Below are positions 11,678 through 30,884 of a stretch of DNA of 34,251 nt, one piece after another. Under the pieces are notes generated by a model, which was not told where the DNA came from, made no database searches, and saw only the letters and a program-made list of their open reading frames with translations. The position numbers were made by a program, and so were the translations under genes. The number at the start of each line of letters is the position of its first letter. The stretch's first letter is position 1. Origin of the DNA: an uncultured Anaerolineales bacterium (lineage in GTDB: Bacteria; Chloroflexota; Anaerolineae; UBA1429). The DNA is taken from NCBI GenBank assembly GCA_964624695.1, contig CAZUZB010000005.1:1-34251 (forward strand). The letters are read 5' to 3'.

Positions 11678-14600
11678 AGGCGCTGCCCTCGAACACCAGG
11701 ATGCGATGATTCTCGCTATCGGCCACCAGCACGCGGTCGGCACCATCCACAACGATGCCCGTCGGCAGTTGCATCGAGCCCAGATCGGTGCCGAACTGCC
11801 CCCACACATCCAGGAGCCGCCCCTGCCCATCGTAGACGAGCACCCGGTAGCCCTCAGGATCGGTGGCGTACACATTGCCCGACGCATCCACCGCGAGGTA
11901 GGGCTTGTTGACCACCGACACGCTCTCCCAGGCGTACAGATCCCACGCATGGGAGAACTGCCCATCCGGCGCAAAGGCCTGGATGCGATGGTTCCAGGTA
12001 TCGGCCACGTACAGCGTCCCATCGGGCCCCACGGCGATGCCCACCGGCTCCTGGAACCGGCCCGCGTCAGAGCCGGCGCCGCCGATGCCCAGGATCATCT
12101 CCCCTTGGGGCGTATACTTGACGATGCGCTTGTTCCCGGTGTCGCTCACATACACATTGCCGTCGCCATCGATGGCCACGTCACGCGGCCCATACAGCAG
12201 GTCGCCGTCACCGGTGGCGCCGGTCTGGCCAAAGGTGCCCCACTCGCGCACATAGCGGCCATCGGGATCAAAGACCTGGATCCGGTGGTTCCAGGTATCA
12301 GCGACGTACACATAACCCTCGGCGTCCACGGCCAGGCCCCACGGCTCCAGGAACTGGCCCGGAGCGGAGCCCTCGCTGCCCCACTGCCGCAACAATACGC
12401 CCGATGAGCTCAGAACCTGGATGCGGTTGTTCTGGCTATCGGCCACATAGAGGTTGCCCTGGGCGTCCGTGGCCAGGCCCTTGGGCGCGCGGAACAAGCC
12501 CGCCTCGCTGCCGGGTCCACCCCAGGCCACGGTGGCCTCGTGCGGGCGCCACAGCGCCAGATACTCGTCCCCGGGCAGCGGCTCGGCCGCCGCGCTCACC
12601 TCGGGGCCATAGTCCCATAGCTGCATGGCAACGTCACGCCGCACATACATGGCGAACTTGTTCACCAACGGCCACGCGTCCAGGCTATGCTGTGACTTGC
12701 GATACCAGATCACATTCCACAACTGACGCCGCCCCTCGGCGCTGCGGAGGTCGCTCCACAGCGTCTCGGGCATCCGTATGTACCAGTCCTGGTCGGGCCA
12801 CCAGATCAGTCGATACTGCCGCCTGAAATAGCGATCCCCCAAGAACGGCTTGATGGCCGACTCGTTGGATGGCCCCACCAGGATCACATCCGCATCCGCC
12901 GCGCCCTCTGTCGCCCCCACAAAGTAGGTGGCATTGGTAAAGTCGCGCAGATACCAGACGAACGGCCAGCTACTATCGTTGTCATAGGCGACGCGCAGAT
13001 GGAGCCCACCCGTCAGACGGTGCGACATCTCCTCCAGTTCGTTGGCCACCACCGCCACATCCGGCGCTCCCTGCGCATAGAACAGGAACTCGGTGACCAG
13101 ATCCTGGTTGATGAACGTGACCATCCACGCAAAGCGCACGGTGGCGGCCATGAGCACCAGCACCAGCGCCAGCGCCGTCAGGCGCCACGCCTCGCTCCGG
13201 CGCAGCCGCTTGACGATCTGCACCACGAACGCCGCCACAATGCCCACCATCACCAACGCCGCCAGCCATCCCATGGTCTCGCGCAACGCCTCAAGCGTGG
13301 TGCCCAGAGAGAACTGCCGCTGGAGCAGCATCGCCAGGGAAAGTATCAGCAGCGGCACCAGCAAGAACAGCCAGAGGCCGCCCCGTTGGCGCACCGAACG
13401 CCAGTCAAGATTGACCAAGCGCGCCAGGGCCCAGCCGCCCAAAAGCTGCATGGGCACCGCGATATGCAAGGTCAGCCAGGGCATCTTTTCGCCGGCCCAG
13501 GAGTAGATCACGAACGCCGCCCAGGCCCACAATATCAGCAAGGCCGCCACGGGCAACGGGCGCGCCACACCCTCGGCGTCGTCCAGGGCTGGCGGCTCAC
13601 CATCCAGCGCCGCCGGCGTCGCCTCACCCCGCAGGGCATACACCGCCGTGCCAGCGATCCCCAGCGCCACCGGTAAGAACTCGTACAGCCCCATCTGCAC
13701 GATATAGTAGAACCAGGGCTGGCTCCCGCGCGCCTCCCCGTGCTGTGAAAGCCAGTAGCCCAGCGAGCCCACCACGCCGGTGGCCAGCCCCTGGCCGTTG
13801 GTGAACATGGTGGTAAAGAGCGGCACCGTGATGCCCCAGAACACGCCCGCGCATGGCAACCAGAGCTTGCGATTCCAGAGGAGCCCGATACCCACACTGG
13901 CGGCCAGCACCACCCCAAAGATGATGCCCGACGAGACGATGCCGCTGGCCGAATAATCCACCGGATCGAACCCCAACGCCTGGATGGCAAAGGGGGAGGC
14001 CCAGGGCAGCAGCAGCGTGCCCATCACCATCAGCACATCGTAGGCGGGGCGGTCGGTCAGGTTGGCGTGCCGCAGATACGCCCACAGCGACCCAGCATCG
14101 GGCTCGCGGTCGCGCAACACCTCCAGGACATAGTAGCCAGCCATAAAGATGCCAAAGATGGCATAAGTGATAAAGGTGGTCTCTTTGCCGGCAAAGCCCA
14201 GGGCATAGCTGGCGGCCAGGATCACCAGATCGCGGGGACGACGACTCTCCAGGTAGCGCAGCATGGCCCACGCCAGCACCAGGTTGAATAGTATTGCCCC
14301 CTGGTCATGCCGGATAAAGCGCGACCGCGCCATCACCACGGGCGAGATGGCCATCAGCAGCATGGCGAGCAACGCCCCCCGTTTGCCCAGCCAGCGACGG
14401 AACGGAATAGCCATCGCCACGATAGCGATACCGAGTAAGGAGGTGCTCAAACGCGCGGTATAGTCGCTGTGGCCAAACAATGCATAGATCAGCGCGGTCC
14501 AGTGGTACAGGAACGGCCCATGGTAGACGGGGTTGTGCTGATAGCCCTGCCCCGTCACCAGCTTCCAGGCCTCCCAGGCATGGATGCTCTCATCGTGGCT

Positions 14601-14768
14601 ATAGCCGCGCGATGATAGATCCCATAGGCGCGTCAAAACCACAAAGAGCATCACCACCACACAAGCCACAGTCCACCAAGTGACCCGCTTGCTCCCAAAC
14701 AGCGGGCGGTCCAGCAGCGACCGAGCGTCGCGTGTCTCTGTCATCGAGGCACTCCCATCCTCTGTCAT
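11664..14768 (-). CDS. TIGR03663-like (PMT/GT-C-like) polytopic membrane protein fused to a C-terminal six-bladed NHL beta-propeller
   Basis: 1034-aa ORF. The N-terminal loop carries the DE and HGP signatures I recall for TIGR03663: RLWDLSSRGYSHDESIHAWEAWKL...NPVYHGPFLYHW. Roughly 14 or more hydrophobic spans follow. The C-terminal 278 aa hold six NHL repeats. The ATG overlaps the upstream stop as ATGA (14765..14768). Confidence 0.9.
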   Translation of the reverse strand: MTEDGSASMTETRDARSLLDRPLFGSKRVTWWTVACVVVMLFVVLTRLWDLSSRGYSHDESIHAWEAWKLVTGQGYQHNPVYHGPFLYHWTALIYALFGHSDYTARLSTSLLGIAIVAMAIPFRRWLGKRGALLAMLLMAISPVVMARSRFIRHDQGAILFNLVLAWAMLRYLESRRPRDLVILAASYALGFAGKETTFITYAIFGIFMAGYYVLEVLRDREPDAGSLWAYLRHANLTDRPAYDVLMVMGTLLLPWASPFAIQALGFDPVDYSASGIVSSGIIFGVVLAASVGIGLLWNRKLWLPCAGVFWGITVPLFTTMFTNGQGLATGVVGSLGYWLSQHGEARGSQPWFYYIVQMGLYEFLPVALGIAGTAVYALRGEATPAALDGEPPALDDAEGVARPLPVAALLILWAWAAFVIYSWAGEKMPWLTLHIAVPMQLLGGWALARLVNLDWRSVRQRGGLWLFLLVPLLILSLAMLLQRQFSLGTTLEALRETMGWLAALVMVGIVAAFVVQIVKRLRRSEAWRLTALALVLVLMAATVRFAWMVTFINQDLVTEFLFYAQGAPDVAVVANELEEMSHRLTGGLHLRVAYDNDSSWPFVWYLRDFTNATYFVGATEGAADADVILVGPSNESAIKPFLGDRYFRRQYRLIWWPDQDWYIRMPETLWSDLRSAEGRRQLWNVIWYRKSQHSLDAWPLVNKFAMYVRRDVAMQLWDYGPEVSAAAEPLPGDEYLALWRPHEATVAWGGPGSEAGLFRAPKGLATDAQGNLYVADSQNNRIQVLSSSGVLLRQWGSEGSAPGQFLEPWGLAVDAEGYVYVADTWNHRIQVFDPDGRYVREWGTFGQTGATGDGDLLYGPRDVAIDGDGNVYVSDTGNKRIVKYTPQGEMILGIGGAGSDAGRFQEPVGIAVGPDGTLYVADTWNHRIQAFAPDGQFSHAWDLYAWESVSVVNKPYLAVDASGNVYATDPEGYRVLVYDGQGRLLDVWGQFGTDLGSMQLPTGIVVDGADRVLVADSENHRILVFEGSAYGAG
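11667..12500 (-). repeat. Six tandem NHL repeats (coding, protein-level repeat)
   Basis: Six repeat cores are readable in the translation:
- GLATDAQGNLYVADSQNNRIQVL
- GLAVDAEGYVYVADTWNHRIQVF
- DVAIDGDGNVYVSDTGNKRIVKY
- GIAVGPDGTLYVADTWNHRIQAF
- YLAVDASGNVYATDPEGYRVLVY
- GIVVDGADRVLVADSENHRILVF. Confidence 0.9.
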
Positions 14769-16528
14769 GGCGAGCTACCGACAAGATCGAGGGGCAGCCA
14801 CACGTGCGCCCGTTCGCGCGCGGGGGCGCCCACCGGCAGGCGCGTCACCACCCAGCGTAGCCGTTCCAGGCTGGCGAGCTCGTGCAGCGCCAAGCTCTCC
14901 CAAAGCGCCACCGGCTGCCCGGCCAAGCGCGCCGGCCAAGCCTCCTCCGGCAGCTCGCGGGTGATCCAGACGTCAGCCTCCTCGCGTAGCGGGTCGGATG
15001 CCGCCCGAGCCCGAGGGTAGTCGCGCAGCGCCCAGCCCAGAACCTCGTCGAGCTCACGATCGTACACCACCCGTAGGGTGGTGCGATCCTTCCCGCCCTT
15101 GGTGGCCGCGCGATCCACCAGCGCCTCCAGCTCGCGGACGTCAGCCGATGCGATCCTGGTGTGTAGCGGCTCCCGTGGATCGCGCGCCGTCCGGTAGGCC
15201 AGCGCCGACGCGCTGGACAGGTGAACGGCGCCCCCCCAAAGAGCCAAAGCGCAGGCGGCAGCGCATAGAGCCCTACGCGCACCACACCAGAGGCCCAAGC
15301 CCCACAAGAGCACGATGCCGGCGCCCACCCCCCAGACCATCAGGCTCAGACGAATCCGTTGGCCCGTCTGCTGGTACGCCACCAGCTCCAGCCAGGCAAA
15401 ACAGAGCGCCACCAACGTCACCGCCACGCCCACGGTATCGCGCGCGTCTCGCTCACCCTGGCGGAAAGCACCGATCAGCCGCTCCACGCCACGCCCCGCC
15501 AGAATTATCGCCGGCAGCCAAGCCTGGCCGATCCAGAGCGTCCCGCGGTGGCCGCCAAGGGTGCCCAAGAGCAGCGCCCAAGCCAGCCACAAAGCCACAG
15601 CCCGCTCCCAAAGGGCAGAGTCCCTGGCTCGGATGGCATACCCGCAAGCCACCAAGGCCAACGCCAGCGTGACCGGCTCGTAAAAGGCGAGGTTGGTGAT
15701 CAGCCACCACCAGGCGCCCTCGGCAGAACGTGGCGCCAGATCCGCGAACCAGCGCCAGGCCACCTCAGCGGTCGCACCGATCCCAGCGAGGTTGGCCGTG
15801 GCCGCCGTGGCGCCCAGTACCAAGAGCGCGCCCCCCAGGGCCAGGTCTCGCCGCGAGACGCCCCCCAGCGCTTCCTTGATGCGCCCCAGTCCGGGCAGGG
15901 GACGGCGCGTCCCCAAGCTGACAAGAACCGCTACCGCCATGCCCATCGGTAGCGTATAGAACAGCGGTGCCGTCAGCACGCCCAACGCAATGGCCACCAC
16001 CAGCCACCGTGGCCGGCCGTGCTCTAGCGCTGCCAGCGCCAGCACGGAGCAACCCAGCGCCAAGACGGCCCCATCCCCGGACCGCGACAGATAGATGCCG
16101 ATGGGCGAGATAGCCGCCAAAGCCGCCACGGCCAACGCGCCCACCCGCCCCAGCCGCCGACGGAACAGGTAAGGCATCGCCACCAAAGCCGCTCCCACCA
16201 GCGACGGGAACAGCCGCACCGTGGCATCGGTGGCGCGCGTCAACGCAAATAGGGCCAGGTTCAGATCAAAGACCAGGGGGCTGTAGTAAACAGCGCGCCA
16301 GCTCTCGCCCCGAATGGCCCGCAACGCCGACAGGGCCGGGGCCAGCTCATCGGCGGCCAACGGCCACGCGCCCAGCCACAGCAGGCGGAACACCAGCCCC
16401 ACCGCCACCAGCGCAGCATAGGCGCCGACCTCCACGGTCAACCAGTCCCACGCTATCGTCCGCGTAGGTTCCCGCGAGGCAGCGAGGCTGGAATCGGTCA
16501 CAGCATTCATCCTACCCCAATCGAGCAA
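14765..16528 (-). CDS. Polytopic membrane protein, divergent TIGR03663/GT-C-like paralog
   Basis: 587-aa ORF, hydrophobic throughout, with a soluble C-terminal portion of about 140 aa. Its first loop aligns to the downstream gene (FRLLWLGAWPLAADELAPALSALR vs TRLWDLSSRGYSHDESIHAWEAWK), but YYSPLVF replaces YHGPFLY. The track start at 16528 is a TTG; an in-frame ATG at 16510 (MNAVTDSS) is an alternative. Confidence 0.8.
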   Translation of the reverse strand: MLDWGRMNAVTDSSLAASREPTRTIAWDWLTVEVGAYAALVAVGLVFRLLWLGAWPLAADELAPALSALRAIRGESWRAVYYSPLVFDLNLALFALTRATDATVRLFPSLVGAALVAMPYLFRRRLGRVGALAVAALAAISPIGIYLSRSGDGAVLALGCSVLALAALEHGRPRWLVVAIALGVLTAPLFYTLPMGMAVAVLVSLGTRRPLPGLGRIKEALGGVSRRDLALGGALLVLGATAATANLAGIGATAEVAWRWFADLAPRSAEGAWWWLITNLAFYEPVTLALALVACGYAIRARDSALWERAVALWLAWALLLGTLGGHRGTLWIGQAWLPAIILAGRGVERLIGAFRQGERDARDTVGVAVTLVALCFAWLELVAYQQTGQRIRLSLMVWGVGAGIVLLWGLGLWCGARRALCAAACALALWGGAVHLSSASALAYRTARDPREPLHTRIASADVRELEALVDRAATKGGKDRTTLRVVYDRELDEVLGWALRDYPRARAASDPLREEADVWITRELPEEAWPARLAGQPVALWESLALHELASLERLRWVVTRLPVGAPARERAHVWLPLDLVGSSP

Positions 16529-16597: not shown

Positions 16598-16625
16598 CCG
16601 CGCTACCGCGGCCGCGCTACCGCGG
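16598..16625. repeat. Perfect 14-nt tandem duplication (CCGCGCTACCGCGG x2) spanning the stop codon of the 778-aa gene
   Basis: 16598..16611 and 16612..16625 are identical. Each unit is itself a 5-bp stem / 4-nt loop mini-hairpin (CCGCG-CTAC-CGCGG). The TAG stop at 16617..16619 lies in the second unit. Confidence 0.9.
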
Positions 16626-18953
16626 GCGCCCGAAGATGATATAGCTCGGATTCTCGTACACCCGGTCGAACAAGGCGTCCAGCTTTTGCACAGTGGCGCC
16701 TCCGACCCCGTACCTGGCTCTTTCGCGCGGCCCCACCACCACCAGGTCCACCCCATAGGCGGCCAGTAGAGCCTGCGTCTCGCTGATGCTGGTCCCCTGG
16801 TAGATGGTGGCAATGTCCGGCTCGCGCTGGCCGGGGATCTCATAGCTGCCGCGCCATTGCAGCTCGTGCCCCGTCCACCCCAAGAGGGTCGGGATCCCCG
16901 TCCACGCCGAGAGGCGGTTGAACTCGGAATACGAGCCGCCGGGGGCCTCCACCATCACGTCATCCTCGCGCGCATTCTCACGCAGCCAGGCGATGGCGTC
17001 ATATTCGTCCGGCGATGTCTGCCGCAGATAGGCGGTGCCATCCAGCGTCGGCGGCGATGCGAACCCGCCGGCCTTGGCGGGCACGGCTGCCAAGGTATAA
17101 CTCAGCCCTGCCACCATGGCAACCACCGCCAATCCGGCCCAGGCCCTGGTGGCTCCGCGCGCCACGCCCCCCTCGGCCCGTCCCGCCCGCATAGCCCGCA
17201 CCGCTAGATGCACCCCAGCCACGCTCAGGAGCACCCAGACTTGGTAGTAGAACTTGAACACGGTGTTCATGCGCGTGCCAAACACGTCCCGCAAAAAGAG
17301 AAACTCACAGAACACCACCAGCGCCCCCGCCAGCGCCACCATGGCCAGGCTCAGACGAGAGGACGCGTCCACCCGGTCCTCGGCAGAGCCATCGCGCCAC
17401 CAGATAGCCAGGCACCAGATCGCCGCTCCCACGAGCAACGCGCCTAGCCAGGCCGTCCACCAACCCAGGAACGCGCAGGCCCCCGTCCCGGCCACCAGGC
17501 CCAGTATCCCCAGCCATTCCAGCGCGCCCATGCCGCGCGCCGACCTGCCTCGCCACGTTCGCCACACCAAGGCGCCCAGAGCCGGCGCCAGCCACACCAC
17601 TTGCGTGCCGAACATGAGCAGGTGCTGATGCAGCCGCGTCTTGATGCCCACCACCCGTCCAATCCCGCCCGCTTGCGAGCGCAGCCCCAGGTAGAACGGC
17701 AAGTATAGCGCCACCCCCAGCACGGCCAGGCTGCCCCCCGCCCGCACTGCATCGCCAACGCGTGCCCATCCCAATGGCGCGTCGTCGCTCGGCCGCCGCA
17801 GCAGATACGCCGCCACGACCATCCCCAGGTAGAGGGGATAGTCCCAGGTGTTCAGGAACCCCAGCGCTCCCACGGCCAGCCCATAGGCGACCAGATGGGA
17901 AAGCCCGCCTGGCCAAGGCAGCCCCAAGGCGCGCCCCGGCCGCTCGTCCAGCAGCAGGTTCAGCGCTAGCGCCAAAGCCACCAACACAAAGGGCAGCGCC
18001 AGCACATGGGGATGATTATCGCCCAGCAGGAAACTGAACGCCGGGAACTCAGAGATCACCTCCAGGCTGTTTCCCAAGGCGTCGCGGTCGTGGATGATGC
18101 GCGAGGCGCGCCACCACCACCACATGTCGTCGGGGTACCAGAAGCGCGACACGGCTGTGGCGCCCAGGTTCTTGACGTCCAGCCAGCGCCAAAGGGCCTC
18201 AGAGCCCCAGCCGCGCGCCCGAATCAGCTCGAACACACCCTCCAGGTTGCCCATCACCGCCACCATGATCGCGGTGAGACCGCCGGCTGCGACGGCCGCG
18301 TTTCCCTTGCCGCTGGACGGGGCATCCCGACCGGGTCGCGCCGCCATCAGGTTGTACCCCAGGCCCATGGCCCCGCTGACCGTCAGCGCAAACAGCGTCG
18401 CCCCCGTCAGGTTGAACCCCACCCCCGGCGCCACGCCCGACAGCCGCGTCAACACGGCCATCATCACATAGCCCAAGTAATAGTAGCTGATGCCATACCC
18501 GGCCAGCCAGGGATCGGCCGGCGGAAAGCTCCGGCTGCGCAGAATGCCGTTCAGAAAGGCGAACTCCATCGGCTTTTCGGTGGCGGCGATCTCTGGGTTA
18601 TAGGCGCGAAACCAGGCGAACAGCGCCAGGGCGACAAGGAATAAAAGCTCCAGCCCTAGTGCCAGCCGCCAGCGCTCGCGCAGCCAGGCGATGATCTCGT
18701 GCCCGTCCCGCCGCCAAACCAGAGCCGATCCCACGGCCACCAGCAGGGTCACCAATAGGATGCTGGAGAGCCGGTTCTCCAGCAGGCCCAGCGTCACCAA
18801 TAGCCAGGTGCCGTACGAGACCGCCAGCAACCCCAAGGGACGCGCCAGCGTCAGCCCCCGGTCGGGCAAGGGTCGGCACAGCCGCCATACCAGCGGGTAC
18901 GCCACCAGGCCCAACGATGTCAGCGCCAACCACCAGCGCAGCACAGCCACCAT
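16617..18953 (-). CDS. Chlor_Arch_YYY / DUF2298 family membrane protein (single-copy form)
   Basis: 778-aa ORF, highly hydrophobic. Family-naming motif GISYYYLGY (YYY at 18477..18485) preceded by [24 protein letters not shown]. Also [16 protein letters not shown] (18006..18053), NTWDYP and [12 protein letters not shown] (17250..17270), plus a C-terminal soluble region of about 170 aa. The ATG shares one base with the giant gene's stop (TGATG, 18951..18955). Confidence 0.9.
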   Translation of the reverse strand: [778 protein letters not shown]

Positions 18954-21900
18954 CAGCCGCTCGCTCCCTCCTGCTCACCCAGCGTCGTCTCCAGCGCCGG
19001 GCGATCCACGCGATACAAGACGCCGCCTTGGTTCTGGTACGCGGTCTCCAAGACGCCGTCCTCGATGAGCCCCCCTATCGCCGCCAGCCCGTTCTCAGCG
19101 TACACCGCCCTCTCGAGCTGGCCCACGTACACATAGCCAACCCCATACCGCGCCAGGATGTCCGCCGCGACTGCCGGATCCTGCGCCGTATAGAGCCTCT
19201 CGGCGTCGCGCTCTCGCTCCAGAACTGCGCCCCACGGCCGTTGCTCGTACTGGTGCATCCCCAGCAGGTTCGGCAGCCCCGTGAACGACGCGATGCGGCC
19301 GCCCCCCTCGCGATAGTAGCCCAAGGGCGCCTCCGCCACCACAGGGGTACCCTCAACATTGTTCCACAGCCAACGGATCACGTCCAGGTCATGCGCGAGA
19401 GCGATGGGATGCTGCGCGTCGGGCCAGTAATAGACCGCCGTCTCCATAAAGGCCGCGCCGTCCAGGGTCCAGCGCGGGCCACCATCCACAAACCGCTCGC
19501 TCACCCGCGCTTGCGTGCCCAACGGCACGTACGCAGCGGCCGCGCCCACCACGAGCGCCACCACCATGCACCAAGCCGCGCCCCATCCGCCACGCACCCA
19601 CGCTCGCCGCCAGAGTTCGGGCAGGCCAGCGCCCAGGGCCAGGCCCAACAACACCCAGGCCTGGAACGAGAACTTGAACACCGTGTTCATCCGCCGCCAC
19701 TCGGTGCCGTCGAGAAAGTCGGCTACGTACACCAGCTCGACCCCGGCCATCATTCCCAGGGCCAGCACCAGCATGGCACGTTGCAGTCGCGACGGCCCCG
19801 ACAGCCCCGGCTGGCACGCCAACCAGATGGCCCCAGCCAGCAACGGCAGGTAGAGCCCCACAGCGCCCAGCCCCAGCAGCGCGCTGCCGACTACCACCAA
19901 GGCGCAGACGGCGCCGACGAGCCACCACCCCCCCGGCAGCCGCCGCACCCAGGCCCGCCCCCACCAGGCCAGCATCGATACCGCGAGGAGCAGGTGCGTC
20001 CCCCACACCACCAGGGCGGGGAGTTGCCCGGTGCGCGCGTTGGCGGGCAGCAGGCGCAACCCCGCCTCGATCGGCACGTACGCCCGCGCAAAAGGGAGAA
20101 ACAGGGCATACCCGGCCGCGGCGATGGCACATCCCAGTAGCAGGTTACGCGCCACGCCACGGGCCCCAGCCTCATGCCATCCCTGAATCGCCAGCGCTGC
20201 CAGAATCAGCAAGCCGTACGGGATGAGATCCCACACATTGGTGGCATAGAGACCCCCCATCACCAAAGCCAGCGTGGCCGCAGCCGGCAGCAGTCCCTTG
20301 ACCCCGCCGCCTTCTCTGGTGACCAGAACCAGCAGCAGCGCCAGAACCAGCAGCGTCATCGGCAGTGCGATCACGTGCGCGTGCAGGTCGGCAAACAAAA
20401 AGGAAAAGAAGGGGAATTCGTTGATGGCATAGGGGATCACCCGCGTGGCTCGCGTCCAGTAGTCAAAGGGCATCAGGGCCGCATCGCCGCGCACGAGTTG
20501 TCCCAGCCCACGCCAGACCGCCGGCAGATCCCGCAGGCTGATCTCGGCCCCGTAAAAGCTCGCGCCGCCCGCCCAGCCCAGCGACTCCAGCCACTGCATG
20601 GGGGCCGTCAGGTTGCCGAGGCAAACCACCAGCCCCATGGCCACCAAGCCCGACCAAGCCGAGCGCCCCAGCCGCCGCCCGATGGACCAGGCCCCCAGGC
20701 TGACAAGCCCGAACAGCGTAGGGAGAGCCAGATTGAACCCGACCTCGGGCGCGAGTCCGGTCAGTTTGAGCAGATAGCTCACCAAATAGTGTCCATAGTA
20801 GTAATAGTTCAGGTACCCCCCAGCATAGTAGGGGTCATAGGGTGGCATGTGGGCCGATCGGCCGATGGCGTTCAGGTAGGCCAGCTCCATCAGCTTTTCG
20901 CCGCCAAAGTAGGGGTGCCACAGGTCCGGGTTGAGCAGGCGAATCACCACCAGGCCGCAAAAGGCCACGGTGAATAGCAGCTCCTCCGCAACGATGAGCC
21001 GGCGCTGCTCGGCCCAAGCGACGGCGATGGCCTCGCGCCCCCGTTTGAGCCCCAGCCAGCAGGCCAGCGCCAGCGCCGCCACAGCCAGCCAGGCGACCCA
21101 GGCCAGGTTCGCCCATAGGCGCAGGCTGGCGCCGATCCAGACCAGGTAGCCCGCCACCAGCCAACCCAAGAGCCGCGCCCAGGCATAGCCCGCGTCTCCC
21201 CAGCGGCGAAACAGGATCGCCGCCAGCGGCCACGCCGCCAGGCCCAGCCCCGCCATGACGAGCCACCAAACAAGGATCGCCAACGGCGCGCTGTCGTTGG
21301 CGATCCCGTTCCACCTCTGGTCTCGAATCACCGGTAGCTCGTCGACCGGCTGTTCGAGCATCAGCGAGCTGGATTCGGGCACGGTGGCCGGTCCCTGCGC
21401 GGCAACCCGCGCGGGCACCCATCGCGGTCTCCACCGCTCCCACGCGTCCCGCACGGTGTCCCAAACGCCAGCCACCGATGGCGCGCGAGCGATGCCCCGC
21501 ACGGCATAGATGGTCACCGGACCATCCTGATAGGCCACGTCTAGTTGGCTGCCAACCATGGCGTCCAACGTCGCCAGCCCCACAGCATCGTAATAGGCAC
21601 GCTCCAGCTCGCCCACATAAATATAGGCCACGTTGTGCCGATCGATGACCGCGCGCTTTTCGGCTGGATCTTGACTTGCGTAGAGCGTCTGCACGTCCTG
21701 CAGGCGCCAATCCACCACGATGCCGCCCACCGCGGCGCGCTGCTGCTTCTGGTGCCAATCCCAGCCCACAATGCTGGGCAGGCCCGTATACACCGAAATG
21801 CGCCCACCCCAGCGATAGAGGGGCGTATTGCCCTCGGCAATGACCGGCGTCCCGCTCACATTCTCCTGCAGCCAGGCAATGGCGCGCTGGTCGTATGCCA

Positions 21901-24900
21901 GCGTGAACTGGGTATCGCGGTCGCCGTACACGGCCGTCGCCATATAGGCGCTGCCGTCCAGGCCAGGGGGCTGGTCAGGGACGTTCCACCGATCACGGAT
22001 CTTGGCCACAGTCGCCGTGGGCGCATACAGGGCCGCGCCCGCTACCAGTAGCACCAGCCCGGCGGTCCACCAGCCGCGCGCTCGGCTGGACCACAAGCTC
22101 CGGCGCTGTGCGATGGCCGCCAGTCCCACAGCCGAGGCCACCCCCCACAGCACCCAAGCTTGCAGGGAGAACTTGAACACGGTGTTCATGCGCCCGATGT
22201 CGCCTTGGAGCACCACATACTCGATGCCCACGGTCAACGCCGCGCCCACCGCCACCAGCGCCACGGCCACCCGGTCGCGCTCTCGCAAGGCGGGATCGAC
22301 CAGCAGCAGCAGCGCCAACACCAGCAACGGCAGCCCGAACACCAACGCCCCCAGCCCCGCGATGATCCCCGCCAGCCAGATGACCCCCAAGGCCACCAAC
22401 AGCGCCCAACCTACCTGGTATCCCACCGTCTGGCCGAAAACCAGCGCGCGATAGAGCCGCCTGAACCGCACAGGCCGTCGCAGGAAGGCGCGCATGGCGC
22501 GTACGGTCGGCAGTCGCGTGCGTCGCTCCCGCGCCAACGTGACCAGATAGGCATACAGGACGTACAGGAACAGGCCGTGAATCCACAGGTACTCGCTCAC
22601 ACTGGTCTGCGCACCGTCCCATAGCCGCACGCTGGTATATCCAGCGCCATAGTTGGCGTGATAGGGCCACGTCAGCAGATAGCCCGCCGCCAGTGTGAAC
22701 AGCAGCCATCCGAGAGCCCGGGCCAGGCCGCCCAAGCCCAGAGATCTCTGCCGAGTCCACTCGGCCGCCAGAAAGGCCAGTCCCGCCAGCCCGGCATAGG
22801 TGGGCAGATCCCAGGTATTGCTGCCCCACAGGTAGCCCAGCACCAGCCCCAACGCCAGCCCCTCGCCGATGCGCGCCCAGGGCAGCCCACCCAAGATGCG
22901 TCGCCAGCGCGGCGCCGCAGATGCAACCTGCGTTGGTGCCGAGCGACGCCGCCATACCACACTCACCATCAGGCCCAACGCCAAAAGCGCATAGGGCAAC
23001 GCCGTCATATGGGCGTGCAGGTCAGCGTATAGGAAGGTAAAGAAGGGAAATTCGTTGATCTCGCCGTGCCCCATGACGCGGGAGGCGTTCCAGTACCACC
23101 ACTCGGGACGAAAGGCCAGCGCCTGCCCCTCGAACAGCCAGCGCCACAGCCCCGTGACCCCACTCGTCAGGCTGCGCAGCGTGGCCGAGCCGGCGCTGGC
23201 CATGGCACCAGCCCCCAGCGCCTTCCAGCCCTCCCACAACAGCTTGACCTGGCCCAGGTTGCCCAGCAGGACGATGGCGACGGTCCCCGCGAGCCCGTAT
23301 CCCCACGCCCGAGACCACCACCCGCCCTCCTCATCGCTGGCCAGCAGGCCATACACCACCGAGCAGGCTCCCGTTCCCGTCAGCGCAAACAGGGTCGGCA
23401 CGGCCAGGTTGTAGGCAGTGGTCGGCACGATGCCCGTGAGTTTGATCAGCGACGCCACCTGCGCCAGCCCCAGATAGTAATAGTTGATATAGCCGCCGGC
23501 GAACCACGGATCATACGGCGGGAACCAGCGGCTGCGCAGGATGGCGTTCAGGTAGGCCAAGTCCATGGGCTTTTCGCCACCCATCACCGGGTGCCACAGA
23601 TCCGGATTGGCGTAGCGAATCGCCACGAACAAGCAAAAGAGCGCCAGGAACAAGATCTCGCTGCGCAGCAGCCAACGCCAACGCAGCCGTGAAAAGGACC
23701 GCAAGGCATGGCGCTGGAGGTAGGCGGCCACCGCGCCCGCGCCCACCACCAAGCCGGCACAGGCCCACATCAGCCCCGTGGTGTTGGGCGCAATCCGCAG
23801 GCTGGGCAGAATCCAAGCCAGATAGCCGAACAGGAGCAGCCCCAACGCTTTGCTCAGCAGATACCCCCGGTCGGGCAGGCCGCGCAGCAGCCCGAACGCC
23901 AACGGAAAGGCGCCGAAACCGAGAGCATACAGCGCCAGCAGCCAGGCTAGCACCGGCCAGCGGTTGGACCAGCTCCCCGGCGCAAACATCGCGCGCCAGG
24001 TGCCGGATGCCTGCTGCTCGGACCAGGTCTCTTGATCCAGCACGAGCTGGTTGGGCGCGCTGGCGGCATCCTTGGGTTTGGCGCGCACCACCCGATCGAG
24101 CTCGATGTCGTCAAACAGCGCCCGGACTCGATCCAGGTCAAAGTCAGCGCGCTTGCGAAAGATGGTCACCTTGGGGTGGTCATAGACAGTCCACGACTCG
24201 TCGGCGTTGTCGTCGTTGATGGGGATGCCCAGCACCCGCGGGTGCGAGGTAAACTCGGCCACCTGCTCAAAGCCCAGCTCCCCCGCGAACAGCGCCTCGT
24301 AGAAGCGGGTGGTCATGGGATACCGGTCGGGCAAGCGCGGGATCGAGCCATAGAGCCGATTGCTCGACAGGGCGATATACTCGACCTCGGTCAACCAACG
24401 GTAGAGTTGCTCGCGTTTCTCGGGCACGTCCTCCCAGTAGAGGTCCATCTGGATCATGCGGTATTCCAGTCCCGCCGCATGGCCGTCGATGCTCAGAGGC
24501 AGCGCGTCGTCCCACAGCTCGTTCGAGATAGCCGAGCCGGGCGGGATGTACGCATAGATCCAGCGCGATGCCTCCACACGGGTGACCGGCCGCGTATAGA
24601 TGCCGGCCACCGCCGTCCCCCAGAGCAAAGCCCCCACCAGGGGCACGACGGCGCCACCCAGCGCCGCCCAACCGCGCCACCCTAGCTCGCCGGCTCGGCG
24701 CCGCCGCCGGAACGCATCGCACAGCCGCACCACCAGATAGCCCGCCATCAGCGCCATGGTCGGGTAGATGGGCAGCAGGTACCGGATGGTCTTGACGAAC
24801 TGGATGCTCTGGTAGCCAAAGGTAAACGTCACCCAGATCCAGGGCAGCAGGTACGTCCACCGGCGGTGCTTCCAGACCTCCCAGCCCATCAGCCCCCAGC

Positions 24901-26113
24901 CGGCCCACGCAGCCAGCCCCAAGGGCAAGCCCTGACCCCAAAGCAGCATGTTCTTGAGCATGTACCAGACCGGCGCGCGCGCGGCCCACTGATGGCTGGG
25001 GGGATAGTCGATCTCTCCCGAGACCAGCTTCTGGATGTACTTCATGTCATCCAACCAGCGGGGGTTGAGCCGCAAGCCGAAAACACCCGGCCCCATAAAG
25101 GCCTGCGGTTGCACAAAGCGGAACACGGCGAACGCCACCAGCAGGAGCGTCGCCCCGGCAGCCAAAGCCCAGCCGATCTGCGACACCCACGGCAGTAGTC
25201 GTTGCCCTTGGTCGTCGTCGGCGTCCAGCCGCAACGAGACCCGCAGCCCCGCAACGCGGCCCTGCGATACCACGCCGGCCGGCGCGCCACGGTGGGCGAT
25301 GCCGCTCATCCGCACGAGAAAGGCCGCCGCGATCACCAGGCCAAAGGTCAACGCGCTGATCTTGGCCGACACGGCCAGGCCGAACGCTACCCCCAGCCCG
25401 ACGACGCTCCCCCAGCCCTCGCCTTGAGCCACCCGCACCGCAAAGTACAGGGCCAGTGTCACGAACAAGGTGGTGGTGGTATCGACGGTGAAAAAGTGCG
25501 ACTGCTGGATATTCAGCGCCGTGACCGCCAGCAAAAAGGCGCCAGCCAGGCCAACCCGCTCATCGTACAGCCGGCGACCAATCAGAAAGACGATCAGCAC
25601 GCTGATCAGGTCCATCCCGCCGGCCATGGCGCGGCCCACCAAATAGATGCCGTGATACCCCGTGAGCCCGGTCAGCCCGCCCAAGAACTTGGCCAGCACC
25701 AACGGGAACAGCCCATAGACATACGTCCCGTGGGGAGTGTTGTAGGGGTTGAGCGGGTTGATGCTGGACTCTAGGTACTCGGCCAGGCTGGACGGCCACC
25801 AGAGGCTGTTCTCCACCATGGTGAGGAAACGCTCGTCAGGATGGAGATGCTGGCCGTCGTCCCAGTCCAGCCCCACAAAGCGCAGGCTGGCTCCCAAAGC
25901 CAGCACCAACAGCAGCGCCAGCCAGGTCAGCAGCACCCGACGGTCGGGTCGCATCAGCGCTTGCCAGGTTGTGCGTGCAGCCTGCCAGAGGGAGCCCCAA
26001 TCCGTGGCCACATCAGGGGTCGGCGTCGCGCCGTCGACCGGATCGCCTATGCTATCCAAGCTACTGTTCTCCATAGAAAGCGACAAAGGTTGCTCGGCCG
26101 TACCCATCCACAT
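18953..26113 (-). CDS. Giant (2386 aa) tri-modular membrane protein: GT-C/PMT-like N-module plus two Chlor_Arch_YYY (DUF2298) domains
   Basis: A single uninterrupted 7.16-kb frame. The N-module has [21 protein letters not shown]. The two YYY modules carry [16 protein letters not shown]...[10 protein letters not shown] and [16 protein letters not shown]...[10 protein letters not shown]. The start is uncertain: ATGs at 26113, 26107 and 26074 all overlap the upstream gene's 3' end (stop at 26061). Confidence 0.85.
   Translation of the reverse strand: [2386 protein letters not shown]
18956..21298 (-). other. Giant protein YYY module 2 (about aa 1606-2386)
   Basis: It starts at [38 protein letters not shown]. 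YYYY at 20795..20806, [16 protein letters not shown] at 20375..20422, MNTVFKF at 19670..19690. It ends ...[24 protein letters not shown]. Boundaries are approximate. Confidence 0.7.
21503..23965 (-). other. Giant protein YYY module 1 (about aa 717-1537)
   Basis: It starts at [35 protein letters not shown], which aligns with the N-terminus of the 778-aa protein. YYY at 23474..23482, [16 protein letters not shown] at 23009..23056, MNTVFKF at 22169..22189. It ends near ...[10 protein letters not shown]. Boundaries are approximate. Confidence 0.7.
23966..26113 (-). other. Giant protein N-module (aa 1 to about 716): GT-C-like membrane domain plus soluble domain
   Basis: HPDERF acidic first-loop motif, about 12 hydrophobic spans, then a soluble segment ...[30 protein letters not shown]...[18 protein letters not shown]. 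It is homologous to the partial gene at 33153..34251. Boundaries are approximate. Confidence 0.7.
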
Positions 26114-28022
26114 AGGTCAACGCAATACCTCGATGGAACGCCTGTTGCAGCCGCGTCAGCGACGCTACGTCCTCGGGCGCCAGGATGATCATGCGCATGC
26201 CCGGTTGGTCATCCAGCGGCGGCTGCCCGCCGACCAGCTCGGCCAGCTCGTGCGCCGTTGGCAACGACCCCTGCGCTAGCTGAGCCCGCACCGCATTGCC
26301 ATCATAGTGATGCGGCCAGACCACAGTATACACGTTTCCCTGGTGGGCAAAGGCATCGATGGCGGCCGCCATCTGCCGCGAGATGGAATGGTTGCCGGCC
26401 GGCAGGTTGGCCCGATAGTCGCGGAAATACACGCGCCATGAGGCGACCACCTCGCCTCCCAGCATGGCCATCACCAGCGCCACAGGAGCCAGCGCCGTCA
26501 GCCATCGCCCGTCGCCCAGCCGCTCCCGCAACCTCCGCAGACTCCCTCGCAGCTCTGCCAAGACCACCGCGGCCAGGAGCAGGGCCGGCACCAGGGCTCC
26601 CACCGCCCGGCCCGCGTTGGGCACCTCTTGCGGAAAGGCCAACGACAACGCCGTTGGCGCCAGCATTACCGGCAGTGTGACCAGCAGAGCAAGCCCTTCC
26701 GCCCGTCGCCAACGCCGCAGCGCCCAGGCCATTCCCAATGGAAAGAGCGCCGCTGGCAGGTAGCCCAACTGCCGCAGCTCGGGCACGTTGCTGGTGGCGA
26801 TGAGATCGCCCCGAACGTTGAACATGCCCACCGTGCGCCAGGCATTCTGCAGCAGAATCCAGGCCGGTCGCCCCGGCAGCGGCACCTCCTCGGCGGTCAT
26901 GCGGGTAGCTACCCGGAACAGATAGCTCGCCGGCTGCGCGACCGCATAGACGGCCAGCGGCAACGCCACATAGGCCATCACCACCACGAGGAGCGCCAGG
27001 CCAGGCAGACGGCCACGCAAACGCGCGCCCCGCCCAGCAACCCACTCGCCCGCCACCAGCAGCAGAATCCAGAAAGGAGCCACCATAAAGGCATTGTAGC
27101 TGTGCAGCCCCAGCCCCAGCGCCAGCCCGCACAGCCCATAGTAGGCGCGGTTGCCCGTGCGCACCGCCCGCAGCCAGGCCCACAGCGCCACCGCCACCAG
27201 AAGGGGCATCACGCTCAGGCGGTAGCCGATGCGGGTCAGGATCACGTGCCAGTGCGCCACAGCCGTGAACGCCGCCGCGTACAGGCCGACCTCACGGCTG
27301 TGCACCTCGCGCCCTAGCAAGTAGACCGCCGGCAGCGTCGCCAACCCCAAGAGGGCGCTGGCGACCTTGATGCTGGTATGGCTCAGCCCCAAGAGACGGG
27401 CTGGCAGCGCTGCCAGGTAGAAAAAGAGCCCCTCGCGCCCCGGCCACGATGCAAAGAACACCGGGTACTGGCCGGATAGAATCTGCTGGATATTCCCGTG
27501 GATATGGGGCAGATCGCAGCCCATCTCGGCCGGCAGGTCCGCCAGCTCGTACAAGCGAAAGGCCGCCCCCACCGCCATGATCGCCAACAGGCCCACGCCG
27601 GCCCATGATAGCCGCAGGCCATCAGCATCGACGCGCCACCGCCGAGGGATCTGCACCCCATCGGGCCAGGCCGCCCAAGACAGCAACGCCAAGCCCCCTA
27701 GCCACATGATTCCTGCCAGCGGCGTGACCCGGTTGGCCGCAAAGGCCGGCATGCCGATCAAGCCCGCCCCCCAGGCAGCCAGCACCAACCACCACGATCT
27801 CGCCCCTCCCGCTGGCCGCGGCCAAGCTCCGGGAATCGAGCGCTCTGGTGAGGGGGGCGAGCTCCACCCGTAAGCGACCGCACCAGCCACCAAGAGCGCC
27901 ACGCCCAGCCCTGTGCCGCGCCCCGAATCCAGCAACCGTTGGCCCAGAGCGCCGACAGAGGCCGCCGCCAGAGGCAGCACCAGCGGCGCCCATGATCGGC
28001 TTGTGCGCTCGGCGCCCATCAC
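26061..28022 (-). CDS. GT-C fold glycosyltransferase-like membrane protein (family 39 / PMT_2 / ArnT-like), variant first-loop motif
   Basis: 653-aa ORF and polytopic. The track start at 28022 is a GTG; an ATG follows at 28019. The layout is typical of PMT_2 (…AAFRLYELADLPAEMGCDLPHIHGN...GLSHTSIKVASALLGLATLPAVYLLGREV...), but the usual Asp-Glu dyad reads Cys-Asp. It begins 3-6 nt after the upstream stop. Confidence 0.8.
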   Translation of the reverse strand: MMGAERTSRSWAPLVLPLAAASVGALGQRLLDSGRGTGLGVALLVAGAVAYGWSSPPSPERSIPGAWPRPAGGARSWWLVLAAWGAGLIGMPAFAANRVTPLAGIMWLGGLALLSWAAWPDGVQIPRRWRVDADGLRLSWAGVGLLAIMAVGAAFRLYELADLPAEMGCDLPHIHGNIQQILSGQYPVFFASWPGREGLFFYLAALPARLLGLSHTSIKVASALLGLATLPAVYLLGREVHSREVGLYAAAFTAVAHWHVILTRIGYRLSVMPLLVAVALWAWLRAVRTGNRAYYGLCGLALGLGLHSYNAFMVAPFWILLLVAGEWVAGRGARLRGRLPGLALLVVVMAYVALPLAVYAVAQPASYLFRVATRMTAEEVPLPGRPAWILLQNAWRTVGMFNVRGDLIATSNVPELRQLGYLPAALFPLGMAWALRRWRRAEGLALLVTLPVMLAPTALSLAFPQEVPNAGRAVGALVPALLLAAVVLAELRGSLRRLRERLGDGRWLTALAPVALVMAMLGGEVVASWRVYFRDYRANLPAGNHSISRQMAAAIDAFAHQGNVYTVVWPHHYDGNAVRAQLAQGSLPTAHELAELVGGQPPLDDQPGMRMIILAPEDVASLTRLQQAFHRGIALTYVDGYGRATFVAFYGEQ

Positions 28023-28025
28023 GGC

Positions 28026-29993
28026 CTAGCCCTCCAGCAGGTAACTGACAAACAGCAGTTCCCCGGATCCATCGTAATGCCGTGTCAAGGCCCCATCAGG
28101 GTAACGCACCTGGATGGCATCCAGTTCCCATTGCCGCTCCGGCAGCAACACAAACAGTGCGCGTCCCTCGATATCCGGCACCCCATCGGCGTTCTCAAGA
28201 GGCTCTAGCAGGTCTGCCCCCTGGACGTCTGGGTTCAGATAGGGGATGGTGGCGAACCCGTAATAGATCCTGGGAGCGCCCACCATATAGCAGGTCAGGG
28301 GTGCCGGCAGCGTCTGCAGGTGCCGCGCGATGCCGTGCGCCACCTGGGTGTTGGGGCCGCCATAGATCTCCAGCGGGGTATAGGTCCGGAAATAGTAGCG
28401 TGCGCTGGCAGTCGCCAAGCCTGCCGAGACCAGGAGCGCGACAGCGGCGGAAGCGGCCGCAGGCAGATCCACCAGGGCGCCCATACGCTGCGTCAGGTCG
28501 TCCAGCCCCAGCGCCACCAGCATCGCCGCCGCCGGAATGGCGATCACATAGCGCGGGCTGGAGGGCGGGTTCTCCAAGAGGGCGCCGCCCAGCAGCACCA
28601 CCGCGCCGATCCACACCAATAGCAAGGCCGCGCCGCTCTCGCGCCATCGCCATGCAGCCACCACCAACCCCAGCACAAAGCAAACGGCGCTCCCCACCCC
28701 CAGCAGCGGGATCGTCGCGCCATAGTGAAAGGTGGGATCCGTGTATAGCACCCAGCCCAATGCCGCCTGGCGTAACTGTCCCAGGAACACCACCGCCTCG
28801 CCAACCCCGCGACGGACCGCCTCCTCAGCCAGCCAACCCGACGGGCCGATGGCCAGCATGTTCCAGCGCGCTACCATGTCCGCTGGGTGGGCGCGCCAGA
28901 ACATGAGCAGAGGCATCGCCGCCACCGCCGCGCCCACGCCGACAAGCGCCAGCACGGGAACCGCCCTCTCCCAGTAGCCCGCCCGTCCCCTCGAAGACAG
29001 CAGGACATACGCGGCCAATAGGATCGGCACCATGCGAGCGCCCATGTAGAAATAGGCACCCAGGCCGAGGCAGACCCCACCCAGTAGCGACCATGCCGCG
29101 CTCTGGCGTTCGAGCCCGCGGTCGGTGGCATAGAGCGCCCCCAGGGCCAGCGCCGGATCCCAGGTGTTGTTCATGCCCAGCCGCCCAAAGTGGATGGCAA
29201 AGTGGTAGCCCGCCAGGAACACGGTTGCCAGCAGGGCCACCCGCCGCCCGAACCAGCGCCGCGCCATCAGATAGAGCAGAGGCACTGTGATGGTGGACAC
29301 GAGGGCCGAGCTGATCCTCAGAGCCGTCACCGTGCGGCCGAACCAGTGCACCAAGGGCGCTTGCAGGAAAAAGTAGAGGGTTGGGTGTGAGAGCCATCCG
29401 GTCGCAAAGGGGTTGGTCAGCGTGCCAGCTAGAACGCCGGCGGCCTCCAGCCCCATAGACGCTTCATCACCAGAGAGAACGTGGGGAATAGTCTCGAGCG
29501 ACCAGAAACGGAGCAGCCCAGCGATAACAGTCAGGCTGAACACCGCGAGCAGCTCTGGCGTCGGCCGGCGGAGCCTGCGCCAGAGTACCGACACACGGCT
29601 AGGCAAAGCACGCCAGCGGACGACCGCGGCCAGCGCCAGGAGCACGGCCGCTGCCCAGCCGGCCAGCAGATCCCACTGCGCCTCTCCAGGTGCTCGGCGC
29701 AGCGCCGCGCCGCCCACCAGCATGCTGCCGACCAGGGCCCCCGCAAGGCATACGGTTCGCAACCATGAGCGGCCCAGCAGCTCCCACCATCGCGCCAGAA
29801 GCTGCTTCAGCCAGCCAGCTCCTTCTCCCCCTCGTCGCAGCGCTACCAGATAGAGAACCAAAGCCGCACCCCACAGGATCGCCCCTCGCGCCAGATTCTG
29901 CTCGCCACGGCTCCAGGCGAGCTGCGCCGCCACCCCCAAGAGGAGCGCCGCCGCCACCAGCCATAAAGTCCCTCGTGACCGTCTCGGGGCCAT
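28026..29993 (-). CDS. GT-C fold glycosyltransferase (family 39 / PMT_2 / ArnT-like)
   Basis: 655-aa polytopic ORF with LLRFWSLETIPHVLSGDEASMGLEA (first-loop DE dyad) followed by RISSALVSTITVPLLYLMARRWFGRR, the usual PMT_2 arrangement. ATG at 29993 is 6 nt after the methyltransferase stop. Confidence 0.85.
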   Translation of the reverse strand: MAPRRSRGTLWLVAAALLLGVAAQLAWSRGEQNLARGAILWGAALVLYLVALRRGGEGAGWLKQLLARWWELLGRSWLRTVCLAGALVGSMLVGGAALRRAPGEAQWDLLAGWAAAVLLALAAVVRWRALPSRVSVLWRRLRRPTPELLAVFSLTVIAGLLRFWSLETIPHVLSGDEASMGLEAAGVLAGTLTNPFATGWLSHPTLYFFLQAPLVHWFGRTVTALRISSALVSTITVPLLYLMARRWFGRRVALLATVFLAGYHFAIHFGRLGMNNTWDPALALGALYATDRGLERQSAAWSLLGGVCLGLGAYFYMGARMVPILLAAYVLLSSRGRAGYWERAVPVLALVGVGAAVAAMPLLMFWRAHPADMVARWNMLAIGPSGWLAEEAVRRGVGEAVVFLGQLRQAALGWVLYTDPTFHYGATIPLLGVGSAVCFVLGLVVAAWRWRESGAALLLVWIGAVVLLGGALLENPPSSPRYVIAIPAAAMLVALGLDDLTQRMGALVDLPAAASAAVALLVSAGLATASARYYFRTYTPLEIYGGPNTQVAHGIARHLQTLPAPLTCYMVGAPRIYYGFATIPYLNPDVQGADLLEPLENADGVPDIEGRALFVLLPERQWELDAIQVRYPDGALTRHYDGSGELLFVSYLLEG

Positions 29994-29999: not shown

Positions 30000-30884
30000 C
30001 TAGTCCTTGATCGCCAGCAGAGCCAGGTTCACAAAGGTGCGCGGCCGGCGCATCAGGCGCGGGTTCTCGTTCCAGCCATCCACCCACTCCATCAGACCCA
30101 GCGCCCAGGTCATCGGGTTCCAGGGGCTGCGTGGGTTCTCGTCTCCGCGAAAGCGGTCGGTCGACCGCGCCAACCCATCGGGGAGCAGACCTCGCTGCAG
30201 CAGGGTCTTGCCCAACGTATAGACGATGAACTGGGTGCCGGGGAAGCAATAGTGGGTAAGCTGAGCCTGCTCCAGGATGCGAAAGCCGTGCCCCTGGACG
30301 ATCCCAGCCAACTCCTGTTCGTCGTACAGCCGCACATGGTTGGCCCAGATGCCCGCCAAGGGGCCGCGCCGCACCGGCGGGAGGCGCAGGCTGGTCAACG
30401 CGCGATTGAGCGGATCGAACCATCCCGAGAACGCCGCCGGCGGCACCGTGATGGCCAGCAACCCGCCGGGGCGGAGCACCCGTCGCACCTCGGCCAACCC
30501 GGCGGCATCGTCGTCGAGATGCTCCAACACCTCGGAGAGGATCACCCGATCAAAGGTCGAATCGGCAAAGGGGAGATGCTCCAGCCGTGCCCGTGCCAGC
30601 GTCGCCCGCCCGCCCAGATGACCATAGGCATAGCCCAGGGGCTGTGGATCCAGATCCACTCCGGCCAAGCGCAGGCCCGGCGTCACCGTCTCTAGCGCTT
30701 TGAGGTAGAACCCCATGCCGGTGCCACCATCGAGGATGGCCTGCCCTGGCTGGGGCGAGAGGCGACGCAGCACCCAGCGCACCCGCCGCTTGTAGGCAGT
30801 GTCGCTCTCGTTGCGGAGCAGCGCATCCAGCCGGCGCTCCTGCTCGGTGGATAGCCCTTGTGCTAGCGACATATCGGCCTTCAC
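30000..30884 (-). CDS. Class I SAM-dependent methyltransferase (Methyltransf_11-like) with a C-terminal extension of about 100 aa
   Basis: 294-aa ORF. SAM motif I ILDGGTGMGFY, the post-I acidic residue in AGVDLD, and motif VLRPGGLLAITV. The track start at 30884 is a GTG; an in-frame ATG at 30872 (MSLAQG...) is an alternative. Confidence 0.9.
   Translation of the reverse strand: MKADMSLAQGLSTEQERRLDALLRNESDTAYKRRVRWVLRRLSPQPGQAILDGGTGMGFYLKALETVTPGLRLAGVDLDPQPLGYAYGHLGGRATLARARLEHLPFADSTFDRVILSEVLEHLDDDAAGLAEVRRVLRPGGLLAITVPPAAFSGWFDPLNRALTSLRLPPVRRGPLAGIWANHVRLYDEQELAGIVQGHGFRILEQAQLTHYCFPGTQFIVYTLGKTLLQRGLLPDGLARSTDRFRGDENPRSPWNPMTWALGLMEWVDGWNENPRLMRRPRTFVNLALLAIKD

Follow-up and report, generated by a model that had tools for sequence, protein, structure and literature searches.

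A conserved three-module membrane protein with two YYY domains and predicted GT-C folds in Anaerolineae-type Chloroflexota

The 34,251-nt stretch of DNA analyzed here (the window; contig CAZUZB010000005.1 of assembly GCA_964624695.1, from an uncultured Anaerolineales bacterium) contains a gene of 7.16 kb whose product, here called the giant, was described in an initial annotation as an N-terminal membrane module fused to two YYY domains, with a third, free-standing YYY gene (Y3) immediately behind it. The locus raises the question of whether a protein of this kind is real and recurrent and, if so, what its YYY modules do. Our analysis showed that the giant is real, a polytopic membrane protein that is conserved in Anaerolineae-type Chloroflexota. 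The predicted structures suggest that it carries three glycosyltransferase-like modules of the GT-C fold in one chain and that the translationally coupled Y3 is a fourth; on balance, we favor a role for them in the assembly of an extracytoplasmic glycan.

The giant open reading frame (ORF), taken at its longest, is a single open frame at 18953..26113 (-), which comprises 2386 codons without a break. The true start is probably M14 (ATG at 26074), which would give a protein of 2373 aa, because the gene calls of the closest relatives begin with MENSSLDS, corresponding to M14 here; this start leaves a 14-nt overlap with the stop of the upstream gene, and the identical overlap was found in the relative L001. 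With the longest-ORF start, the overlap with the upstream gene would be 53 nt (26061-26113, -). The giant matched the NCBIfam model TIGR03662 (Chlor_Arch_YYY) in two stretches with 1030 bits (cutoff, 300.25) and the Pfam model DUF2298 twice with 741 and 384 bits (cutoff, 27.8), and its N-terminal module (N-module) matched the Pfam model PMT_2 at aa 168-267 with 49.9 bits (cutoff, 26.1). The N-module (aa 1-716; 23966..26113, -) is a PMT_2/GT39-like GT-C membrane domain of approximately 11 transmembrane (TM) helices with an alpha/beta soluble domain at about aa 510-716. The limits of the YYY modules were taken from a family hidden Markov model (HMM) built in this analysis, which placed YYY module 1 (Y1; TIGR03662/DUF2298) at aa 719-1540 (21494..23959, -) and YYY module 2 (Y2) at aa 1611-2371 (19001..21283, -), 15 aa before the end of the protein; the boundaries proposed earlier from landmark motifs (717-1537 and 1606-2386) were only a few residues off. 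The two modules are separated by a linker of approximately 70 aa (aa 1541-1610; 21284..21493, -), which is predicted to be non-cytoplasmic and holds a conserved PV.ELP...WN stretch. The reported spacings between the YYY and MNTVFKF motifs (431 aa in copy 1, 372 aa in copy 2, and 405 aa in the free-standing gene) were exact on recount. Family searches detected no TPR in the whole protein at E<=0.01 and none in its last 236 aa at E<=10, in agreement with the reported absence of a TPR tail; the TPR-class relatives, by contrast, gave TPR Pfam matches and have tails of approximately 200 aa. The observations made on the giant in the initial annotation were thus confirmed in every detail, and its interpretation was partly supported.

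An artefactual 7.16-kb frame would mean that separate genes were merged through mis-assembly or a sequencing error, and split versions do exist in some relatives (clean in L002 and frameshift-like in L077). However, at least 21 independent genome loci have the uninterrupted fusion, among them loci in chromosome-scale assemblies and that of the cultured Roseiflexus castenholzii, and the joints fall within conserved linker sequence; we regard an artefact as extremely improbable. A check of the fusion by independent assembly, which the initial annotation had suggested, gave the same result: the same gene and gene order were found in other assemblies. On a separate ENA contig (L001), the 81% identical protein P0002 is encoded by the same uninterrupted three-module gene; its stop/start coupling to a YYY gene of 778 aa and its neighboring genes are also as in the window. 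The same 2366-aa gene and 778-aa gene are present in L001 and L003, and the chromosome-scale metagenome-assembled genomes (MAGs) OY776562.1 and JBMNFN010000001.1 contain ORFs of 2349 and 784 aa and of 2367 and 788 aa, respectively. Mis-assembly of the giant was ruled out by the occurrence of the same fusion in L001 and in these chromosome-scale MAGs. A scan of species-representative genomes found relatives of the giant at 248 loci, almost all of them in Chloroflexota MAGs, and the nearest species-representative genome was 81% identical. The window is a new species-level member of a well-populated subclass that has the N-module and two YYY modules and no TPR tail.

The population of this subclass was apparent from the 120 best database matches to the giant, 46 of which had the N-module and two YYY modules without a tail, as in the window. 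The N-module with two YYY modules and a TPR tail of approximately 200 aa (the Roseiflexus type, to which the TIGRFAM text refers) accounted for 32 of these matches, and the N-module with a single YYY module for 30. Locus layouts were counted over 82 related loci. The tailless two-YYY protein was followed by one free YYY gene at 21 loci, and at 3 more the downstream DNA was too short to show a full-length free YYY gene; the TPR-tailed giant was followed by a free YYY gene at 3 loci, including that of R. castenholzii. The single-YYY protein was followed by one free YYY gene at 21 loci and by two at 2 loci (L002 and L077); at the remaining 22 single-YYY loci a free YYY gene was not found, although only about 8 of these have approximately 10 kb of downstream DNA. 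The two-copy class in the TIGRFAM text on TIGR03662 is distinguished by an extra N-terminal region, two copies, and 3-4 C-terminal TPRs; the giant has the N-terminal region and the two copies but not the C-terminal TPRs. Its initial designation as a variant architecture therefore holds against that old text but not in the sense of rarity, as the frequencies of 46/120 matches and 21/82 loci show, and NCBI routinely labels the TPR-less form 'DUF2298 domain-containing protein'. Three other proteins of approximately 2300 aa (P0087, P0088, and P0104, of the L087 type) have an N-terminal region of approximately 1440 aa before a single YYY module; they may consist of two PMT_2-like modules and one YYY module, which would be another permutation of the fusion.

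The free-standing gene Y3 (16617..18953, -) encodes a full-length TIGR03662 protein of 778 aa (522.6 bits). Its ATG shares base 18953 with the TGA of the giant (GGCTGATGGTG), as had been reported, and a Shine-Dalgarno-like sequence (GGAGGGAG) lies just upstream of its start. Three YYY modules do lie in tandem on the DNA, two in the giant and then Y3, with the YYY.G motif at aa 878 in Y1, aa 1770 in Y2, and aa 157 in Y3. BLASTP alignments of approximately 830 columns each, which span the full length of the modules and establish their homology over that length, gave identities of 36.7% for Y1-Y2 (E 2e-89), 32.9% for Y1-Y3, and 32.8% for Y2-Y3; copies 1 and 2 are mutually closer than either is to Y3, as had been suspected, by a slight margin.

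The age of this similarity was addressed with a neighbor-joining tree of 109 modules, which resolved three clean groups corresponding to the Y3 type (free-standing), Y1, and Y2. In a 52-taxon bootstrap analysis, the Y1 and Y3 clades were each recovered at 100%, and each spans both Anaerolineae and Roseiflexus-type proteins; the Y1 clade includes members from TPR-class, TPR-less, and single-YYY proteins. Within Y2, the TPR-class group and the TPR-less group were solid (100% and 99%, respectively), and their union received 52%. Since the Y1 and Y3 clades extend across both lineages, the tree indicates that the duplications are older than those lineages, that is, that the paralogues predate the Anaerolineae/Chloroflexia split. 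A recent tandem duplication was also considered and was ruled out by the same two clades. From the proposal that tandem duplication was followed by fusion, the duplication stands as an ancient rather than a recent event, but the order of events does not: because the split locus L002 is an exception among fused relatives, a later fission is no less likely than a fusion.

The structure of the modules was predicted with AlphaFold2. The model of Y3, built from 63 sequences, had a pLDDT of 89.4 and a pTM of 0.93, and in a Foldseek search of the PDB all 11 matches at E<1e-3 were GT-C enzymes with a probability of 1.00, namely the C-mannosyltransferase DPY19, AglB, STT3, PglB, and ArnT. The model of the N-module (pLDDT, 87.2; pTM, 0.86) matched AglB, STT3, ALG9/ALG12, ArnT, Pmt4, AftA, and Emb, with E values down to 2e-11. 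The YYY module and the N-module are thus both predicted to have the GT-C fold, an assignment that is new here.

The same matches raise the possibility that YYY is oligosaccharyltransferase-like and, as AglB, STT3, and PglB do, transfers a ready-made glycan en bloc from its lipid carrier onto proteins of the envelope instead of extending a glycan by single sugars. The best structural matches of YYY include AglB, STT3, and PglB, the C-terminal soluble domain of Y3 alone resembles the AglB-S2 globular domain with a TM-score of 0.50-0.54 (target-normalized), and the YYY C-terminal domain has an invariant His in a G-W-x-x-H-like stretch. However, DPY19 and ArnT match the YYY model about equally to AglB, and no YYY module gave an STT3 match with Pfam or NCBIfam. 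In place of a conserved WWDYG motif, the aligned residues are GWDWH in Y1, GMHQY in Y2, and GWTGH in Y3, and three to four paralogous oligosaccharyltransferases in one operon would be unusual. We consider an oligosaccharyltransferase-like function unlikely.

A total of 64 columns were at least 93% identical across the 109 YYY modules, and 63 of them are kept in Y1, Y2, and Y3; the exception is a proline column in which Y2 has I (aa 1964). The charged and polar residues in this set are, in Y3 numbering, E126, K127, D147, E302, D312, H314, H316, N368, W370, and D371, together with R561, N563, K567, H696, R710, and E744; two His, an N-W-D, and RMNTVFK thus belong to the near-invariant set. The acidic residues E126, D147, E302, and D312 are equivalent to positions 847, 868, 1021, and 1031 in Y1 and 1739, 1760, 1899, and 1909 in Y2, respectively. 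All the charged and polar near-invariant residues fall in predicted outside loops, outer helix ends, or the soluble domain, and the first long outside loop predicted for YYY contains the invariant NP[DE], E126, and D147. These acidic and His residues are candidates for an active site, and judged by their retention all three copies look competent. Loop 1 of the N-module contains the invariant residues W84-D85 and H91-P92-D93-E94-R95; D93-E94 is invariant in 46 sequences and fits the PMT_2/GT39-like acidic DE pair. The H-P-D-E-R stretch is the counterpart of the acidic pair that PMT-type enzymes have in loop 1.

The sidedness of these residues depends on the topology of the modules. In the Y3 model, 16 helices are of membrane length; a Kyte-Doolittle scan by itself proved too coarse to count helices. 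In a 16-TM model with both ends outside, the K+R residues in short loops were distributed inside:outside as 23:8 in Y3, 28:5 in Y1, and 18:7 in Y2 when helix cores of 17 residues were used, and full predicted helices gave an indecisive 13:11. At locus L002, where Y2 is a separate gene (14550-17168, +; start, MARTSGRYRKARSVLILFSLSASLTLLAGC), the linker is retained and is preceded by a lipoprotein-type signal peptide (...LTLLAGC), and therefore the linker and the module N-terminus appear to be exported. An arginine run (RRRRR) before the last helix of the N-module places its soluble domain outside, and we infer that the N-module ends outside the cell and that the YYY module has 16 TM helices with both termini extracellular. 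Such a both-ends-out topology would allow head-to-tail joining of modules without an adaptor helix. The initial annotation had asked whether the soluble domains face one side; all of them are predicted on the outer side by the 16-TM model and the K+R bias, and the conserved acidic and His motifs would likewise face outside.

These predictions bear on a further explanation, in which YYY is not a transferase but a flippase or scramblase of lipid-linked sugars, or a non-catalytic scaffold or chaperone for the neighboring PMT_2-type enzymes. The Agl23 protein of Haloarcula is a reported hexose-P-dolichol flippase candidate that moves lipid-linked oligosaccharide in vitro (PMC11182771), and the adjacently encoded TIGR03663/Agl23 family is itself GT-C-like; the enzymology of YYY is also absent from the literature searched. 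All three paralogues, however, have strictly conserved acidic, His, and Arg residues in predicted outside loops and in the soluble domain, a conservation that is typical of an outward-facing catalytic site rather than of a scramblase groove, and the operon already has two other flippase candidates. A non-transferase role therefore appears improbable to us, to about the same degree as an oligosaccharyltransferase-like one.

Several results nevertheless weigh against the assignment of the modules as glycosyltransferases. Searches of PDB sequences with the giant, Y3, or the Y3 family profile returned nothing meaningful, so the GT-C assignment of YYY is a prediction from structure and not from sequence. 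The global TM-scores of the Y3 model matches were low (0.3-0.37), which makes this a fold-level assignment. The comparison of the YYY profile with the N-module profile by hhalign gave a probability of 12%, that is, no sequence-level link. The Agl23 example indicates that GT-C-like membrane proteins may be flippases and not transferases. No polyprenyl-phosphate sugar synthase (GT2) was found within the window, and our literature search for YYY/DUF2298 found no functional study and two incidental mentions.

The genomic context is consistent with a function in glycan assembly. The giant belongs to a cluster of co-directional genes found conserved in many Chloroflexota, with a partial PMT-like GT-C gene, flippase-like, GT4, and methyltransferase genes, two PMT_2 genes, the giant, and Y3 in this order, followed by a weakly Agl23-like gene, an Agl23-NHL fusion, and HAD, NUDIX, and CCA-adding enzyme genes. 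The partial gene (33153..34250, -) is the C-terminal part of a PMT-like GT-C gene cut off by the edge of the window; its counterpart in L001 encodes 621 aa. Family matches identified a flippase-like membrane protein of 344 aa (LPG_synthase_TM / TIGR00374; 32017..33051, -), a cytoplasmic GT4 glycosyltransferase of the GT-B fold (376 aa; 30890..32020, -), and an S-adenosylmethionine-dependent methyltransferase (294 aa; 30000..30884, -). The two PMT_2-type GT-C proteins upstream of the giant comprise 655 aa (28026..29993, -), assigned from Pfam and relatives, and 653 aa (26061..28022, -), assigned from Pfam and conserved in position in relatives. At L026, the two upstream PMT_2 genes appear as one 1358-codon ORF, which would represent either a further GT-C/GT-C fusion in the operon or a frameshift or read-through.

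Downstream of Y3, a 587-aa membrane protein (14765..16528, -) is weakly Agl23/TIGR03663-like, under the curated cutoff, and the next gene (11664..14768, -) encodes a GT-C-like membrane protein of the Agl23 family (TIGR03663; 1034 aa; 261 bits; cutoff, 126) with a five-repeat NHL beta-propeller fused at its C-terminus. This Agl23-NHL gene, two genes downstream of the giant, is kept in most relatives. In total, nine GT-C-like modules are encoded on one strand within approximately 22 kb (11664-34250, -): the partial PMT-like protein, the two PMT_2 proteins, the three modules of the giant, Y3, and the two Agl23-like proteins. Across loci, the N-module and YYY modules are always fused or adjacent (N+2Y then Y; N+Y then Y; or, in L002, N+Y, Y, Y), and the Agl23-like genes come after the YYY genes in most loci of our dataset. 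According to the TIGRFAM text, TIGR03662 and TIGR03663 also co-occur in genomes.

The HAD, NUDIX, and CCA-adding enzyme genes likewise follow the cluster in the closest relatives. The longest HAD-hydrolase ORF (10922-12022, -) extends approximately 360 nt into the 3' end of the Agl23-NHL gene; its true start is probably further downstream, because the protein called in relatives has approximately 243 aa. At the far end of the window (1244-6288), there are a polysaccharide deacetylase gene (NodB/PgdA-like, -) and a GH2 beta-mannosidase-like gene (+), which were not present in the relatives' loci examined, reaching approximately 10 kb on each side of the giant. A DUF2298 gene of Firmicutes, whose product is 26% identical to Y3, is located on plasmid pNP95 of Pseudobutyrivibrio xylanivorans (L084; 7932-10187) in a surface-polysaccharide locus with genes for a GT2, a glucosyltransferase-domain protein, an O-antigen ligase family protein, an epimerase/dehydratase, and a DegT aminotransferase. 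A tblastn search against plasmids also gave a partial, unannotated match in Halarchaeum with uninformative neighbors.

Taken together, the gene set suggests a likely pathway. The cytoplasmic GT4 would make a lipid-linked primer, and the flippase-like and Agl23-family proteins would carry the primer and polyprenyl-phosphate sugars to the outer face of the membrane. There, the three modules of the giant, Y3, and the PMT_2 proteins would work together in adding sugars, each GT-C module transferring a sugar from a polyprenyl-phosphate-linked donor to the growing glycan and probably forming a different linkage. The product would be either a lipoglycan or a glycan attached to the wall or to protein, and the methyltransferase may modify it. 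The "processive multi-site machine" of the initial annotation is a proposal, since the data show only modules that travel together and retain their invariant residues. More tentatively, DUF2298/YYY may be an unrecognized GT-C family with a 16-helix, both-ends-out topology, and the giant a covalent hetero-oligomer of three GT-C enzymes that, with Y3, the PMT_2, Agl23-type, GT4, and methyltransferase proteins, and an MprF-type flippase, builds a lipoarabinomannan (LAM)-like lipoglycan or a wall-linked glycan specific to Chloroflexota; we hold this extended scheme to be conceivable, with the odds somewhat against it.

The YYY/DUF2298 family is large, with 9,731 cluster representatives (50% identity) matching at E<=1e-3, and the main value of the locus is as a lead into this orphan family and not in its architecture, to which the window adds one species-level example. 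If the fold assignment is true, the operon would bring together as many as nine GT-C-like modules in little space, with natural fusions that indicate enzyme partners, and would be a starting point for the study of the poorly understood assembly of cell envelope glycans in Chloroflexota, and a source of naturally covalently linked GT-C enzymes for structural work.

Comparison with known systems places the giant closest to other TPR-less proteins with the N-module and two YYY modules. Those of Anaerolineae and other Chloroflexota MAGs (such as P0002, P0006, and P0014) have the same architecture, operon order, and stop/start coupling at 45-98% identity and show no substantial difference. The 2679-aa protein of R. 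castenholzii (CP000804.1; P0099) also has a PMT_2-like N-terminal region and two YYY modules, with a free YYY gene behind it, and the Y1 modules of its TPR class and of the giant fall in one clade with 100% bootstrap support. The identity is only 37-40%, the giant is without the C-terminal TPR tail of approximately 200 aa, and the Roseiflexus locus is without PMT_2, Agl23-like, GT4, and methyltransferase genes within 10 kb on each side.

The characterized GT-C enzymes belong to several families (AglB, STT3, and PglB to GT66, DPY19 to GT98, ArnT to GT83, and PMT to GT39 in CAZy). The N-module and YYY are predicted to share with them the fold, a first large outside loop that carries invariant acidic residues, and an extracytoplasmic C-terminal soluble domain. 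Unlike these enzymes, YYY has undetectable sequence similarity to them, approximately three extra N-terminal helices, a predicted outside N-terminus, and motifs of its own (EK.M, YYY.G, and EFP..F....D.), and the giant has three modules per polypeptide, whereas the characterized enzymes are single modules.

In mycobacteria, the GT-C paralogues of the Emb/Aft/Mpt sets work one after another on the outer side of the membrane with polyprenyl-phosphate sugars, and in the assembly of arabinogalactan and of lipomannan (LM) and LAM, cytoplasmic GT4 steps and a flipping step come first. GT-C enzymes are also known as homo- or heterodimers, such as Pmt1-Pmt2. By analogy, the gene set of the window follows a logic similar to that by which mycobacteria assemble LM/LAM and arabinogalactan; in the mycobacterial and Pmt systems, however, the modules are separate polypeptides of other families. 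The relation to Agl23 (TIGR03663) of Haloarcula hispanica concerns the family member two genes downstream and not the giant itself, and the copy in the window differs from the Haloarcula protein in its added NHL propeller.

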